The notes beneath the pieces were generated by a model that worked only from the letters and a program-made list of their open reading frames with translations, was not told where the DNA came from and made no database searches. Shown piece by piece: positions 6,928 to 22,530 of a DNA stretch of 26,779 nucleotides. Numbering within the stretch: the first letter of the stretch is position 1; each line of letters starts with the position of its first letter. Position numbers and translations under genes: made by a program. This DNA comes from a virus. The stretch lies in UHGV virus genome UHGV-1446736. One strand, given 5' to 3'.

Positions 6928-8915
6928 TAACCCACCCTCACCTGATTACTTCGCATGACCTGAGCATTTGCAGACTGTTGCCGACGTGCAACCTCATTAC
7001 CGACAGCGTGCGGATCTCCGCCACCGTAAATGTGGTAAGTATTTTGCTGGTTAACCTCTGTCATTTTGCCACTAATTCCCGCCACGGCAGCCTTATTAAT
7101 CAGCTCTCGAGAATAGATATTTCTTCCATTTTCATGCTGGATAATGCTGCTCATCAATGCTGACATGGTTTGCGGATCGCTCATATTCAGGGCAGCCCGG
7201 GGATCCACTCCCAGTCGTTGCGATACAGCCCTGATATACGCAGTTGTGTTGTTATTATCAGACGCAGGTGCCCAGGTAGAGATAATTTTCTCCACACTGT
7301 TTATTCCCCGTCCGGCGTACAGCATTAACTGACGAGCAAGAGCTCGTAATCCATCAAAAGCAGTTTCAAATCTGGCAAATCGCCCGCCCGGGCGTTCAAG
7401 AGAAGCCCCTGCCTGACCAGCAAAATTAAGGTTTCCCGGATTGTTATTCCGTTCTCCTCGTTTCGTAGCCTGTGCATATTGTTCCGGCTCATCATCACCA
7501 AACCAGCCGCGTACCGTCCGGCCCACACTGCGGGGATCGAATCCCCAGTGCTCTTTAATCCAGTCGGCAGTACTGTTAGCGCTGTCTGTAACCATCGGCA
7601 TCGCTGACGGATTTTCGCTGCCCTGATTAAGTATCTGTTTGCCGATGCTGACGGCATCAGCCCAGCGGCCATCTTTGATAGCGTTGAGCAGGTCGGCGAT
7701 CATGTTCAGCATTTTGCTGAATTCGCCCATCTGGTCGATGAAGTTGCTGAAATCCCACTTCAGGGACCATGATTTGGGGTCAATATTGAGCAGTTTCGCC
7801 AGCGCTTTCGCCAGTTCATTAACAGACCCTTTCAGGTCACGAACCATCTTCAGCGCGGCATCGACCTCCGGCTTCCACTTGCCCCAGTCAATCAGGCTGT
7901 CGCCGCCTTCCTTCCAGGTCTGATAGTCCTCCCACAGAAGGGCAATCCCCGCCGCCAGCGCGGTAATGAGGCCAATCGGCGACATCCAGAACGTACTGTT
8001 CAGAATGCGCAGCGCAATCGTCAGCGCGCCAAACAGCGAGATGAGCTCCCGCGTTTGCTTATCCAGCGATTGCCACCAGGTGATGAGGCCTGATGTTCCT
8101 TCAATCAGTCTGAAGAACAGCCGCCCGATAATATCCCCGAGCGCCAGAATGCCTTTTATGGCTTTCGTCAGGGTCTGCTCGATACGCGGGAAGTTGTCCA
8201 GGATATGGCGGCGCAGAGTGTCCAGCGAACCCGCAAGCCCACCCGCAAGATTAGAGCCGATTTTGTCACGGGCCATGCCTGCCATCGCGCCAAACTCACG
8301 CAGGGAGGTCATAAATTTGTTGGAGCTTCTGGCCGCCTCGTCAGCATTGAAGCCGATAGCTTTCGCCATTGCGCTGTACTGCCCGGAGAAACCACCCACA
8401 CCCCGGCGCATCGCCATAAGGGTATTTTCGTCAATGCCCAGCATCTGCGCATACTGGTTAGCCCGGTAATACGGCATGCCGCTGAGCTTCTGTCCTACAC
8501 CTGTAAAAATAGCGGCCATGTCACGCATGTTACCGCTGGCATCCCGTGTCTGTACCCCCAGACGATTCAGAAATCCCTCAGCCCCGGGGTTATTACGGAT
8601 AAAACGGGCAAGGCTCTCCAGTGACCCGCGCGCAGCGTCCACGCTGCCGCCAACCTGCGAAACCGCATAGCCAATAGACTGAATTCCCTGGACTGTCGCG
8701 CCGGTGCGCTGTGACGCCCAGTAAAGATTATCCAGACCAGAGGCGATCTTAGCCGTGAAGGCCACCACGGACAGCGCAGCTCCTTCAACAGCCAGCCCCA
8801 TTTTGATGACATTTGCAGTTGTACCGGCGAGGACAGAACCGAACTTTTTCGCTCCTGCATCATCCACACTGAAGCCAAGCGAGACGAGGAAATCTTTAAT
8901 AGTTTCAGCGTTCAT
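6927..8915 (-). CDS. Tail tape measure protein
   Basis: Long ORF (about 660 aa) with Ala/Gly-rich helical N-terminal part and a hydrophobic central stretch (LISLFGALTIALRILNSTFWMSPIGLITALAAGIALLW), downstream of the tail chaperone. The probable start is the ATG at 8915 (MNAETIKDF) with GAGAGG upstream; the track start at 8936 is a TTG. Confidence 0.75.
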   Translation of the reverse strand: MNAETIKDFLVSLGFSVDDAGAKKFGSVLAGTTANVIKMGLAVEGAALSVVAFTAKIASGLDNLYWASQRTGATVQGIQSIGYAVSQVGGSVDAARGSLESLARFIRNNPGAEGFLNRLGVQTRDASGNMRDMAAIFTGVGQKLSGMPYYRANQYAQMLGIDENTLMAMRRGVGGFSGQYSAMAKAIGFNADEAARSSNKFMTSLREFGAMAGMARDKIGSNLAGGLAGSLDTLRRHILDNFPRIEQTLTKAIKGILALGDIIGRLFFRLIEGTSGLITWWQSLDKQTRELISLFGALTIALRILNSTFWMSPIGLITALAAGIALLWEDYQTWKEGGDSLIDWGKWKPEVDAALKMVRDLKGSVNELAKALAKLLNIDPKSWSLKWDFSNFIDQMGEFSKMLNMIADLLNAIKDGRWADAVSIGKQILNQGSENPSAMPMVTDSANSTADWIKEHWGFDPRSVGRTVRGWFGDDEPEQYAQATKRGERNNNPGNLNFAGQAGASLERPGGRFARFETAFDGLRALARQLMLYAGRGINSVEKIISTWAPASDNNNTTAYIRAVSQRLGVDPRAALNMSDPQTMSALMSSIIQHENGRNIYSRELINKAAVAGISGKMTEVNQQNTYHIYGGGDPHAVGNEVARRQQSANAQVMRSNQVRVG

Positions 8916-18039: not shown

Positions 18040-19661
18040 CAGGCCTGTCTCCCTAGCAACTCCCAGATGTTCAGGGCTGAATTCATTGGGGCATAGTTGA
18101 TCATCACCGAGTCGGCAAGGTTTGGCGACCGGGTTCCATCAGGCTGTTTATCAATAACGATTTTTCCCACACCATTAATGGAATAGGTCGGCTGCGAAAG
18201 CTCGATGATGAGTTTATCTTTGAGTGCCATGCTACTGCTGATTGAGATGATTTCGTCCGGGTTGTAAGCCATACCTTCAACCACGGCGCGCCAGGTATTC
18301 TGAAAAAGTTTACGTAACCGCCACCAGCTCTGGGCTTTGGCGTTAGCGAAGAAGTCCTTGTTCAGACGTGCGGCTTGCCCGTTGTCCCCGCGAACAGCTT
18401 CATCATCCGGATCAAATACCGCGCCACTACCTCGAAACGGTGTGGCGAGTATTGACGGTCGACGCGCAGCGTTACGCAGTTCGTTGATAGCGCGTGCATC
18501 GCCGCGAACGCCAGCGCCCAGTCCGTCCTCGTCAAAGCGAAACTCTTCGAGGTTATCCTGTTCGCAAAAGCCGAAAACCTTCTCGACGGACTGATAAATG
18601 TCGCTGCCCACACCGGACCATTCCCGCACATTTTCCAGGAGGAAGCCATGACGGGTGGAAAAGGCATTTTTGTCCCTGCCTTCGTCGGCGACATCCATCG
18701 CGCCAAGTCGTTTGCCTGTTGGCTGGATACCCAGTTTGATATGCGCATCAACGGCAGCCTGTACCCATTCGGATGGAATCAGGACGCCTTCCGCTGATGC
18801 GCTGTAGTTCAGATCAAGTTCCTGTGCCACCACCACCGGATTATCGATTTTCTCGCATTCCCTGCGATACCACTCTTCATCCTTGCGAGGATCATCCCGC
18901 CAGTGGAATGTGAATACCGGTATCTTCCCGCCATGACGCTTCTGAGCGAACGGGTTAGCCATGCCGTTAACTGAACTCAGGTCGATACGGCAACGCGTCG
19001 TTTGTGACAACGCCGCATCAATCAGCAGAGGACGCTGAAGGAATGCAGCCTCATCAACCAGATAAAGCGTGGTACGGTCACCACGACCAATATTATCGCC
19101 AGCCTCGCCTTTGATAACGGCACCAGTTTCAGGAAACTCAACACGCATATATGGCGCGTGCTTCTTCTCACTCCACGAACCGCGAAACTCTACAGGTAGC
19201 GTTTCCACGAACTTGCGCGCCTTCCAGAACAATGCTTTCGGGTCACCGGTGCTGTCGACGTATTCCTCTTTACGGGAGCCAAAACCGATAACCATTTCTT
19301 TGTTGAAGAGACAAAGCGAGCATGCCAGTCCGATCGCGGTCCAACTGAGCCCCATTTCACGGGATTTTTCGGTAATACCATTCTCCCGATTGCTCCAGCG
19401 TTCCATAATCCAGTGGATCCACTCCTCCTGCTTAGGGAAGAGTAAAAACGGAATGGTCACCGGCAGGCCATAATCAATATTACGCGGGTCCGATGTCATG
19501 CCCCAGTCGATGATGAACTGAGCCGGATTGGTTCGGTAAAACTGTTTTAGTGCAGGCAATATTTCAGGATTCTGGCGAATGCGCTGTAGGCGTTCCATCC
19601 GCCATTCAAAAACCATCTGGTAATCAGGATGTTTAAAATCGAAGGGGAATGGTAACGGCAT
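18039..19661 (-). CDS. Terminase large subunit
   Basis: 540-aa ORF after the small terminase gene; contains a Walker-B-like hydrophobic stretch ending in DE ([11 protein letters not shown]) and a C-terminal nuclease-type region; ATG confirmed at 19661. Confidence 0.85.
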
Positions 19662-19663
19662 AC

Positions 19664-20215
19664 TTAGCCCATCATTTTTCTATACGCTTCTGCAACCTGC
19701 TCCGGCGTTAAGTTGGTAATTTCTGTTCTGACTGGTCCTCCGTCAGCACCAGTCACTTCATTTTTGACATTGTCTTTAAACGCCTGAACAGAAACATGAC
19801 GCCCGAGCAACTCAAGGTTTTTAACCTTATCAGGCCATTTGATTTTCTTCAGAAGTGCGGCGCTATCTGCGGATGCCATCTCCACGACATCCATTCCTGA
19901 TAACGTTGTGCGCCATACCTTAGGCCAGTCTTTAATGGGTTTTAGCTCACCGTTTTGCAGGAGAATGTCAAGCACATCCATCTGGTCGATTTCAATAAGG
20001 CGATTAAGTACATATTCTGCATTAATACCAACAAGATCATTGCGTTGCGCTTTCAGTTCGGCGATTCTTAACTTGATGTCAGGTTTTGACAGGTTTTCGG
20101 ATGCGGTACGGTTGGCTGTTTTTGCGCTGTACCCCGCCCGAATAGCCGCTTGCGTGGCGTTTAAATCGATGAGGTACTCGCGACAGAACATCTCTTGCTT
20201 GTCTGTGAGTGCCAT
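19664..20215 (-). CDS. Terminase small subunit (P27/Terminase_2-like)
   Basis: 183-aa ORF starting [30 protein letters not shown], the N-terminal signature of this small-terminase family; ATG confirmed at 20215. Confidence 0.8.
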
Positions 20216-20235
20216 TTTTTCTCAAAGGTGAATTT

Positions 20236-20667
20236 ATGAGCTCATTAACGTTTATCGGATTGTCACAGTTACTTTCTAGGAAAGGTGAGTTATTACAGCA
20301 AAATACGAATGATTTATTAGAACGTGTTAACACCGCATGGAATAACAAACGAGACCTTAATAAGCAAATTTCCATAGAGCTAAATGATGGAGAGCTTGAG
20401 GTTTCAATTCCACAGCTACGCTTTAAGTGTTTTACAGAAAGTAAGCTTTCACTTCACGAAGGCTCATTAATTGGGGTTATTACTTTTTACACATCGCGAG
20501 ATGGAAAAAAACAGGAGTTTCATAAAATTTTTCTTGATTGGAACAATTGCATGCATTTTGGGGCGCTTGACTCAACAGCTCCAATAGACATCGACTATAC
20601 CGAAGATGTTGAGTATCTCTTTATGAACGCTCTAATCGATTCTGCTTATCGAAATAATTTAATCTAA
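20236..20667 (+). CDS. Orphan plus-strand moron gene, hypothetical 143-aa protein
   Basis: The only convincing plus-strand gene in the window: ATG at 20236 with AAGGTG 5 nt upstream, markedly AT-rich, no signal peptide or transmembrane segment, no motif I recognise. It sits between terS and the lysis cassette, where lambda carries bor. Confidence 0.6.
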   Translation: MSSLTFIGLSQLLSRKGELLQQNTNDLLERVNTAWNNKRDLNKQISIELNDGELEVSIPQLRFKCFTESKLSLHEGSLIGVITFYTSRDGKKQEFHKIFLDWNNCMHFGALDSTAPIDIDYTEDVEYLFMNALIDSAYRNNLI

Positions 20668-21109
20668 TTGATGTTGGTGGTGAACTTTTGCCACCCAGTT
20701 AATCACTCTTAGCAGGATATAAGCCATTGTCGAGACCACTCATTGAATGGTCTCTGCAATAACCGATGTCTTTCCATCAGTCCGCCACCACAAAGAATCT
20801 TTTTTGCCATAAGGCAGGAGGTTCATCTTTCAGTGGCTGCCAGTGTTATTTCCCCACTTACTGGCTTGGGTTGTTTCGCTGTACTGCCGTAACTGGTTGC
20901 CCAGAATAAATTCCGGTTTCATTATCAAGCCCACCCGTAGATAGGCTTTGTAATTAACTGGCTCTTATCTCAACGCAGCCCCTTACCGCGCGCCAGATGC
21001 TCAACTTCAAGCATCAGCAATGAGATGTTTAATCTGGATTCACTCCAGAAGTGATCACCACCCTGTCTACAGAGCCAGATGTGAAGGATGATGAGTAAAA
21101 TTATCGCTA

Positions 21110-21547
21110 TCATCGAAGGCATTGCGTCCTGATGTATTCCTGCAAGTAGTTAACCTGCGCGGTTATCCTGTCGATTCCACTTTGGAGACGGTAATAATTG
21201 AGTTCAGCATCTGCTGTAAGTCTTGGGATTTCTCCATCGCCCATGCTGCTGGCTCCGGTCGTTGACTTTGCACAGGTGGCGGCGACTTGCAGGCGCTTAC
21301 GCCCAGCAGAAACATCAGCACGGAGGCTTTCGATAGTCGCGTTAGCATCAGCAAGCTCCTTTGTGTATCTGGCGTCGAGTTCTGCTACATCACGTTGACG
21401 CTTCTGCATATCAGCGATGATGGATGTGGCTTTATTGCGCTGCTCTTTGTAGGTCATGGCGTTATCACGGTAATGATTAACAGCCCATGACAGGCAGACG
21501 ATGATGCAGATAACCAGAGCGGAGATAATCGCGGTTACTCTACTCAT
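21110..21547 (-). CDS. Rz: Rz inner-membrane spanin (i-spanin)
   Basis: N-terminus [29 protein letters not shown] matches lambda Rz as I recall it; the ATG overlaps the endolysin stop (ATGA). Confidence 0.85.
21163..21348 (-). CDS. Rz1: Rz1 outer-membrane lipoprotein spanin (o-spanin), embedded in Rz in the +1 frame
   Basis: ORF wholly inside Rz in a different frame; ATG at 21348 gives [20 protein letters not shown] with a lipobox (LLGVSAC) followed by a Pro-rich mature part ([11 protein letters not shown]). Confidence 0.75.
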
Positions 21548-22041
21548 TGTTGCCCCCACAAACAGACTTCACGCTCAATCTCACGGCGAGTCATCAGCCC
21601 TTTCCATTGCTTACCGCCAGCGTATGTCCAGCGCCGTAGCTGATCACATGCGCCTTTGATATCGCCCTGGTTTATTTTGCGAAGAAGCGTCGATGTTCTG
21701 AAATTTCCAGCACCAACGTTGTAAACGAACGAGTAAAGAGCGCCGCGCGTTGTTTCCGGTATATCGACTTTGATGTACGGGTTAATTTGTCTGGCGACAG
21801 TGGCAAGGTCTTTATTCAGGAGGGCTTTGCATTCTGCTTCGGTATACGTTTTACCGAGCATAATGTCTTTTCCGGTATGCCCGTAACATACAGTCCATAC
21901 GCCAACAATATCTTTATATGGTATGTAGCTGACACCTTCCAGACCATCGTCACCACTCGGACCAGTGATAAGCACAGACGCTATGGCAACAGCCCCACCA
22001 CCAATAGCAGCTGCAACAGCCTTGCGTAATGATGGCGACAT
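21544..22041 (-). CDS. R: SAR endolysin (signal-anchor-release lysozyme, phage 21 R-like)
   Basis: 165 aa; N-terminal Gly/Ala-rich weak transmembrane segment ([20 protein letters not shown]) followed by a T4-lysozyme-like catalytic region; closely matches phage 21 R as I recall it. Confidence 0.88.
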
Positions 22042-22374: not shown

Positions 22375-22450
22375 TGGTGCTGGTTAACGGACTTGAACCG
22401 CTACCCATTCGCTTACAAGGCGACTGCTCTACCATTGGAGCTAAACCAGC
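22375..22450 (-). tRNA. tRNA-Thr (anticodon UGU), 76 nt with encoded CCA
   Basis: Minus-strand sequence GCTGGTT-TA-GCTC-CAATGGTA-GAGC-A-GTCGC-CTTGTAA-GCGAA-TGGGT-AGCGG-TTCAAGT-CCGTT-AACCAGC-A-CCA folds as a cloverleaf: 7-bp acceptor stem, 4-bp D stem with GG in the loop, anticodon loop with U33 and A37, canonical T-loop. Resembles E. coli tRNA-Thr. Confidence 0.65.
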
Positions 22451-22455
22451 ATATT

Positions 22456-22530
22456 TGGCGGGACAGCGTGGACTCGAACCACGATAAGAAGGTTAACAGC
22501 CTTCCGTAATGACCTTTATACGACTGACCC
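22456..22530 (-). tRNA. tRNA-Asn (anticodon GUU), 75 nt with encoded CCA
   Basis: Minus-strand sequence GGGTCAG-TC-GTAT-AAAGGTCA-TTAC-G-GAAGG-CTGTTAA-CCTTC-TTAT-CGTGG-TTCGAGT-CCACG-CTGTCCC-G-CCA: perfect anticodon and T stems, T-loop identical to E. coli tRNA-Asn, but one T:T mismatch in the acceptor stem and one in the D stem. Confidence 0.5.

Follow-up and report, generated by a model that had tools for sequence, protein, structure and literature searches.

The open reading frame (ORF) at positions 20236-20667 on the plus strand of virus genome UHGV-1446736, of which we analysed a stretch of 26,779 nucleotides (the window), is a real protein-coding gene under purifying selection. We count it as real because pairwise dN/dS among close alleles is only 0.12-0.18 (at dS of 0.45-0.74) and because the length of the product is kept at 143-152 amino acids (aa) in relatives with an identity to the window protein down to 19%. 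Judging from sequence comparisons, the gene represents an undescribed family rather than an orphan. Its surroundings suggest that it would be the cargo of a compact moron cassette, in a slot that is exchangeable through recombination and that has the lysis genes on one side and the gene encoding the small terminase subunit (terS) on the other, on the strand opposite to the Q-dependent late operon.

The gene and its neighborhood

The features of the window on which the argument rests are the following:

19664-20215, minus strand: terS, small terminase subunit (Pfam Terminase_2, E 7e-40; PHROG 51, E 1e-51)
20126-20215, minus strand: codons 1-30 of terS, which flank the cassette on its left and whose nucleotide sequence is conserved even at the wobble positions
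20216-20235, no strand assigned: putative bidirectional translation-initiation spacer of 20 nt, with AGGTG (plus strand) at 20226-20230 and the purine-rich GAGAAAAA (minus strand) before the ATG of terS
20236-20667, plus strand: the ORF, with its ATG at 20236, 143 codons and a stop codon (RefSeq WP_000097127.1, hypothetical protein)
20676-20695, plus strand: hairpin predicted by RNAfold, 9 nt past the stop codon, GGTGGTGA-ACTT-TTGCCACC, with eight pairs including two G-U pairs
20714-21122, minus strand: right flank, with a ca. 98% identical counterpart in the prophages of about 2,600 E. coli genomes

The original prediction, which was made from the bare sequence, had described a gene starting 20 bp from a divergent terS and preceded by a good ribosome-binding site. 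Both statements are accurate: the first base of terS is 20215 on the minus strand, which leaves a gap of exactly 20 nt (20216-20235), and the AGGTG motif is positioned 5 nt upstream of the ATG. A longer ORF, starting with GTG at 20209, was ruled out as the true start; the homologues all begin at the methionine equivalent to the ATG of the ORF, and in all of them this residue is preceded by a GGAG-type Shine-Dalgarno sequence. The gene had also been described as strongly AT-rich, and indeed its GC content is 35.9%, compared to 46.4% for terS and ca. 52-55% for the structural genes. This applies to the alleles in general, which have a GC content of 36-43% vs. 47-54% for their flanks, a pattern that is the same in 18 IMG/VR loci.

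The stretch from 20100 to 21150, the part that was compared, matches a lambda-like prophage of E. coli SCU-301 with 100% identity. RefSeq annotates no other plus-strand coding sequence on this prophage across the range of the window, in agreement with the claim that the gene is the only one on its strand, and the remaining identified genes of the window are all on the minus strand, so that the gene is, as stated, antisense to the late operon. These minus-strand genes comprise Q (Pfam Phage_antitermQ), two tRNAs, a P21-type holin (P21 holin S), endolysin (Phage_lysozyme), Rz (Phage_lysis), terS, terL, portal, and head and tail genes. TerS is the divergent neighbor of the ORF and the first packaging gene in the Q-dependent late operon. 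The gene order is thus that of a noncontiguous operon, in which the minus-strand series Q, holin, endolysin, and Rz is separated from terS, terL, and portal, likewise on the minus strand, by the plus-strand ORF.

The right flank consists of ca. 250 nt without an annotated gene (20714-20969) and an ORF of 50 aa (20970-21122; phrog_11822, WP_001139681.1) that overlaps the end of Rz (21110-21559). To reach terS, the late transcript must traverse this flank and the antisense of the cargo gene. The flank is conserved among the prophages of the roughly 2,600 E. coli genomes despite their differing packaging modules.

Some further observations concern the rest of the prophage. Embedded in Rz is an ORF of 63 aa (21163-21354, minus strand) that has features typical of an Rz1 o-spanin, namely a proline-rich stretch and a lipoprotein-type signal (LLGVSAC); it is absent from the annotation of the matching RefSeq record. 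Genes for tRNA-Thr (TGT) and tRNA-Asn (GTT) are found between the Q and holin genes (22375-22530, minus strand), i.e., at the head of the late transcript; Rfam detected nothing beyond these two tRNAs. The prophage of SCU-301 (locus L041) has an early region of the lambda type (cI, cro, cII, O, P, ren, nin, Q, sieB, ral, gam, bet, and exo) and a structural module of the contractile-tail type (baseplate J/gp47, DUF3383, DUF2612, spike, and a DUF1073 portal), a mosaic that is typical of lambdoid myoviruses.

Relatives and predicted fold of the protein

The designation of the gene as an orphan had to be abandoned. Relatives of the protein occur in Escherichia, Klebsiella, Citrobacter, Enterobacter, Kosakonia, Pantoea, and Cronobacter phage ES2. 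Among 5.8 billion proteins, 15 homologues of the same length with 68-99% identity were detected, in Enterobacter, Citrobacter, and Klebsiella. With an HMMER profile, 21 proteins were retrieved from 1.84 billion representatives at E ≤0.001, of which ca. 17 are full-length; the other matches are repetitive false hits or fragments. Profile searching of these representatives provided ca. 15 extra clusters of proteins of 143-148 aa with 20-36% identity, and the members from Kosakonia and Pantoea were found through a second profile search. The window protein (the first row in alignments A1-A4) shares with the family homology over its full length, a size of 143-152 aa, and a C-terminal SA..(K)LI(S) motif.

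The member from Cronobacter phage ES2 (AEM24710.1; locus L030, 2046-2480), a protein of 144 aa, was detected solely via terS synteny, and comparison using hhalign results in a probability of 99.9% (E 3e-32). Like the window gene, it starts 20 nt from a divergent terS, but the two proteins are just 19% identical. Its GenBank name, “transcriptional regulator,” was not adopted; no DNA-binding or other domain is detectable in any member of the family and the label is probably unfounded. Within E. coli the gene is carried by 7 out of 5,426 complete genomes, all with at least 99.8% identity and all of human or animal origin. A scan of the genomes of GTDB species representatives provided no relative, and tblastn with the window protein and with the abundant allele P0018 gave no match in 50,697 phage records.

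The prediction of a soluble 143-aa protein without a recognizable motif was confirmed. Pfam, PHROGs, NCBIfam, and PADLOC returned nothing for it, and signal and membrane segments are absent. Also for the 21-32 members of the family examined no match was obtained in the domain libraries Pfam, PHROGs, and NCBIfam, while searches of PDB sequences with single-sequence and profile queries produced only chance-level matches for the window protein and the family members. PADLOC-DB 2.0 gave no consistent match to a defense model, only matches of single members at E 0.003 or weaker. We call the family undescribed because it has no match above chance among PDB sequences and none to the models of Pfam, PHROGs, NCBIfam, or PADLOC. 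No homology to a structural or packaging protein, which would be at odds with a cargo gene, emerged either; the lone match, to a PHROG annotated as “virion structural protein,” has E = 0.02 across 50 residues and is regarded as noise.

An AlphaFold2 model based on an alignment of 31 sequences has a pLDDT of 91.4 and a pTM of 0.86, and all five models reach a pLDDT of at least 88. It supersedes an earlier model from 16 sequences, which was unreliable (pLDDT 47-61 in four of the five models). The predicted fold comprises a long N-terminal helix (residues 6-37), a six-stranded antiparallel sheet (46-108), and a C-terminal helix (125-139), so that the protein would be a small, acidic alpha/beta protein shaped as a sandwich of helix, six-stranded sheet, and helix. 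The family members have pI values of 4.7-5.9, that of the window protein being ca. 5. The N-terminus, MSSLTFIGLSQLLSRKGE, forms a long amphipathic helix in this confident model and contains no lipobox cysteine. Both length and predicted fold are conserved between alleles of 19-25% identity.

Residues M1, L20, P59, F63, F84, A137, and I143 are invariant or nearly so in the whole family. The conserved positions are nearly all hydrophobic and a catalytic constellation is absent. The nearest folds, although the matches are weak, are those of frataxin/CyaY and of CesT-type chaperones of type III secretion, both of which are protein-binding scaffolds. The frataxin/CyaY fold is an alpha-beta sandwich in which two terminal helices are packed on an antiparallel sheet; membership of this family in terms of sequence profiles was not found, since none of the 21-32 members has a Pfam or PDB sequence match to it. 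Because the conserved residues do not form a catalytic constellation and the nearest folds are protein-binding scaffolds, the product would act through binding of a partner protein rather than through catalysis. The lack of signal and membrane segments points to the cytoplasm as its predicted location.

Among viral models, Foldseek identified a single significant match, a protein of 151 aa from Burkholderia phage Mana (BFVD A0A873WDE3; E 1e-5, TM 0.76). It is probably CPT_Mana_015, with which it was equated on the basis of its length alone. It has no sequence similarity to the family (hhalign probability 0.4%). In phage Mana, which is P2-like, CPT_Mana_015 (locus L037, 9269-9724) separates the tail completion genes from gpV and is followed by an annotated terminator. 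It is an inserted gene, located on the same strand as the late genes.

The slot beside terS

The cassette measures ca. 490 bp and consists of the 20-nt leader, the gene, and the hairpin. Its edges are apparent from blastn comparisons. On the left, similarity stops at 20216-20223, at the ATG of terS, and on the right the similarity of the Klebsiella and Citrobacter alleles stops at ca. 20705, just past the hairpin, while that of the sibling prophages picks up again at 20714-20765. The hairpin of the window allele is not followed by a run of T; GC-rich hairpins after the stop codon are present in almost all alleles, and those of loci L004, L007, L033, and L056 do possess a T-run.

The comparison with related prophages at this junction, which had been proposed as a check, revealed other cargo in the slot. 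Sibling prophages of E. coli with a terS 5' end that is 94-97% identical and with the same Rz-side flank carry unrelated genes on the plus strand, at 24-26 nt from terS:

Locus L025, 2641-2877, same antisense slot and orientation: hypothetical protein of 78 aa
Locus L026, 2606-2932: hypothetical protein of 108 aa, with an annotated start that overlaps terS
Locus L027, 2643-3109: a pair of genes encoding YodC/DUF2158 and DUF6953 proteins

The possibility that these are truncated relatives of the family was rejected upon comparison. All are small, uncharacterized proteins, and they would share any promoter that serves the slot.

The cargo also varies independently of terS. Citrobacter loci L011 and L019 have near-identical TerS N-termini, whereas their alleles are 84 and 29% identical, respectively, to the window protein, and across the loci terS shows an overall identity of 58-69% vs. 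19-100% for the cargo. Co-evolution with terS was, consequently, rejected, as alleles and terS types assort independently. Lambdoid morons, as defined by Hendrix, Juhala and co-workers, are patchily distributed among siblings, deviate in base composition, and have compact boundaries. The window cassette resembles them in its absence from close siblings, its AT-richness, its compact edges, and the hairpin after the stop codon; it is present patchily, or replaced, beside the same flanks and has a deviating base composition. It differs from them in that its leader of 20 nt has no space for a promoter of its own.

The position of the gene is highly regular. In nearly every member of the family it is the first gene divergent from a terS of the Terminase_2 type, with a product beginning with MALTDKQ, and it separates the packaging genes of a lambdoid prophage from the lysis cassette. 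All 18 IMG/VR loci have 20-21 nt between the gene and the start of terS, and so do Citrobacter, Klebsiella, and metagenomic loci, including those with alleles that are just 25-36% identical; in Pantoea, where the gene lies directly between Rz and terS, the distance is 25 nt. To judge from its sequence, the spacer would hold two opposed Shine-Dalgarno sequences, one for each strand, and a good Shine-Dalgarno sequence precedes the gene in every allele. The constant spacing of 20-21 nt requires no functional coupling to terS, since this is about the minimum for two opposed ribosome-binding sites.

In some loci a remnant of terS accompanies the gene. In Klebsiella (loci L008 and L010; 7777-7980) an N-terminal terS fragment of 204 nt (67 codons ending in a stop) adjoins an intact family member, and a working long-form terS of 334 aa is located 3 kb away. 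It looks as if the packaging module was replaced here, with the cargo and the former start of terS staying behind. In Citrobacter koseri the gene is preceded by a 59-nt remnant from the start of terS, which shares 95% identity with positions 20158-20216 of the window, and the real terS is 671 nt away, beyond another plus-strand gene. At this locus (L035) a run of 15 C (ca. 6967-7000) is present between the remnant and the Shine-Dalgarno sequence of the homologue that starts at 7001, a homopolymer that could cause phase-variable expression. In Kosakonia a degenerate 30-mer resembling the terS start (23 out of 30 positions, by eye) occurs exactly 20 nt upstream of the gene. The distant member P0024 (23% identity) is located outside the late operon, among small genes on the opposite strand near Abi_2 or PemK-type genes.

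The 5' end of terS itself is conserved to an unusual degree. Among identical residues, the fraction of identical codons is 0.58-0.96 for codons 1-30 vs. 0.35-0.62 for codons 31-75. This conservation spans Escherichia, Klebsiella, Citrobacter, Cronobacter, and Pantoea, while the rest of terS has a protein identity of ca. 60%. The conserved element could be a promoter or 5' untranslated region (UTR) for the cargo of the slot, a pac site, or a linker for recombination.

The first of these options touches on the question where transcription of the gene starts. The original prediction stated that the promoter must lie inside terS, and this follows by elimination, since the cassette leader of just 20 nt before the ATG leaves no room for one. 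A sigma-70-like site to go with this was, however, not found within 300 nt. A consensus scanner detected none over 19600-21200, and hexamer scans with spacers of 15-19 nt and an extended -10 revealed none that is conserved within 300 nt upstream in 14 loci. Inspection of the terS 5' end by eye showed no sigma-E, sigma-54, or sigma-28 motifs. A perfect TTGACA at 20086-20091 was considered as a -35 element and dismissed; it is not accompanied by a usable -10 and is conserved in only part of the alleles. As no sigma-70-like promoter was found, independent transcription of the gene is something that we infer rather than observe.

Comparison with known systems and weighing of explanations

The original prediction drew attention to bor of phage lambda, and this comparison holds for both position and orientation: bor follows directly after Rz at the lysis-packaging junction, on the strand opposite to the late genes. 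Bor is the classical prophage-expressed moron at this junction and encodes a secreted lipoprotein of the outer membrane. The window protein, which possesses no signal peptide, lipobox, or Bor Pfam match, is unrelated to it. More generally, lambdoid prophages are known to carry cargo expressed during lysogeny at their lysis-packaging junction, such as bor, the LT-II toxins, and the Tai defense.

For the Tai defense the arrangement has been studied in phage phi80, in which taiEcA (orf63) is an antisense gene that interrupts the Q-dependent late operon, at a moron locus “upstream of the packaging module” (PMC11364771). TaiEcA is made in the lysogen, lowered by expression of Q, and blocks the tail assembly of other lambdoid phages; the layout has been termed a noncontiguous operon, and atiEcA is the anti-defense partner (PMC11364771). 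A parallel reciprocal antisense logic has been described for tha/ith of Staphylococcus aureus phage 80alpha (PMC11087260). The window gene shares with taiEcA that it stands alone as an antisense gene in a lambdoid prophage, with the lysis genes on one side and the packaging module on the other. It differs in that its divergent neighbor is terS itself and in the size of its product (143 aa vs. 204 aa for TaiEcA). Membership of the Tai group, which also includes Tai proteins of Pectobacterium PICIs, was rejected with TaiEcA as the one protein compared, as hhalign of TaiEcA against the family profile results in a probability of 0.4%. A small late-strand partner comparable to ati was not found consistently across the contexts examined.

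We consider it probable that the gene is an independently expressed accessory cargo gene. The suggestion of a prophage cargo gene thus survives, in so far as the gene is accessory at this junction and siblings carry other cargo in the same slot; it is the orphan status that does not. Our complete explanation goes further and we assign it a probability of roughly 55%. The gene, as the cargo of the cassette, would have a transcript of its own, which would be initiated at a weak or non-consensus promoter within the conserved 5' end of terS and would be made chiefly in the lysogen. Once the phage has entered lytic growth, the convergent late transcription would damp expression of the gene, in a noncontiguous-operon layout as for phi80 taiEcA. 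Its product would bind another protein, and its most likely role would be in phage-phage conflict, where it would protect the lysogen from other phages. This role is judged most likely because of the combination of the architecture of the locus, the turnover of alleles, and the binder-like fold; the Abi_2 or PemK-type neighbors of P0024 also count in favor of the explanation as a whole. Anti-phage defense as the specific function seems plausible but less likely than not; no PADLOC model matches and a consistent partner such as atiEcA is missing. An own transcription unit has against it that no sigma-70-like promoter was found within 300 nt and that the hairpin of the window allele has no T-run, and the tight linkage to the terS start could reflect a function that is tied to terS.

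This last point leads to a different explanation, in which the gene is coupled to terS and is a regulator instead of cargo: its mRNA, which would need to begin within terS, would be antisense to the terS initiation region, or its protein would silence or tune terminase or packaging. It would account for the gap of 20-21 nt in all 18 IMG/VR loci (20-25 nt elsewhere beside terS) with alleles down to 19% identity, for the wobble-position conservation of terS codons 1-30, and for the 5' remnants that persist where the functional terS has a different location or belongs to a different type (204 nt in Klebsiella, 59 nt in C. koseri, 23/30 positions in Kosakonia). However, homologous exchange at a conserved linker would also leave such remnants, and two opposed Shine-Dalgarno sequences would set nearly the same minimum gap. 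Moreover, unrelated genes occupy the same slot in sibling prophages at 24-26 nt from terS, phages such as phiES15 and vB_EcoM-683R1 have a related terS and no divergent gene at that place, and the alleles do not co-vary with terS. We regard coupling to terS as unlikely. Somewhat more improbable is a counter-defense protein (anti-restriction or anti-immune) that is made early after infection or induction and inhibits a defense of the host. A small acidic protein without catalytic residues and with extreme allele divergence between otherwise similar phages would fit such a role, but the fold matches are weak, lambdoid genes of this kind normally reside in early operons (ral and gam of this prophage are early-region genes and lie to the right of the window), and strong late transcription would be just the condition under which a gene antisense to the late operon is silenced.

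Much less probable again is a conversion factor for host fitness or virulence in the manner of Bor or Lom, with the cell surface or the environment of the host as its site of action. The gene shares position and orientation with lambda bor and its seven E. coli carriers are of human or animal source, but its product lacks a signal peptide, lipobox, or membrane helix, starts with a long amphipathic helix in the confident model, has no Bor Pfam match, and has a predicted location in the cytoplasm. At the far end of the scale, we deem it most improbable that the ORF is decaying or unexpressed and without function, its AT-rich DNA mattering only as DNA, e.g., as bent DNA flanking a pac site. That no promoter was found, that the adjacent terS 5' end is conserved as DNA, and that all alleles are AT-rich would be in line with this, but such an ORF would not be expected to show strong purifying selection (dN/dS 0.12-0.18), to keep its length and predicted fold at 19-25% identity, and to have a good Shine-Dalgarno sequence in every allele.

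Returning to the cargo cassette, a more specific version can be formulated, which is speculative and in our view improbable as a whole, although less so than any of these alternatives. The first 60-90 nt of terS would form a conserved, non-consensus outward promoter or 5' UTR for the cargo of the slot, and the 143-aa family would be a new single-protein prophage immunity factor that binds a virion-assembly or packaging component (e.g., TerS) of superinfecting phages or satellites and that is off during late transcription of its own phage. If true, such an outward promoter or 5' UTR would account for the terS-start remnants that accompany the cassette.

What is new here is the gene family; the kind of locus, an antisense moron slot at the lysis-packaging junction, is already known. 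To this known locus our analysis adds a cleanly delimited, exchangeable cassette and an uncharacterized family with a confident predicted fold. The slot poses the question of how a cargo gene at 20 nt from terS is transcribed, given the conserved terS 5' end, the two-way spacer, and the lack of a visible promoter. The extreme divergence of alleles beside near-identical flanks is a pattern that is frequent in genes involved in phage-phage or phage-host conflict, and the gene, being small and easily cloned, is a candidate for screens of defense, counter-defense, or control of packaging.
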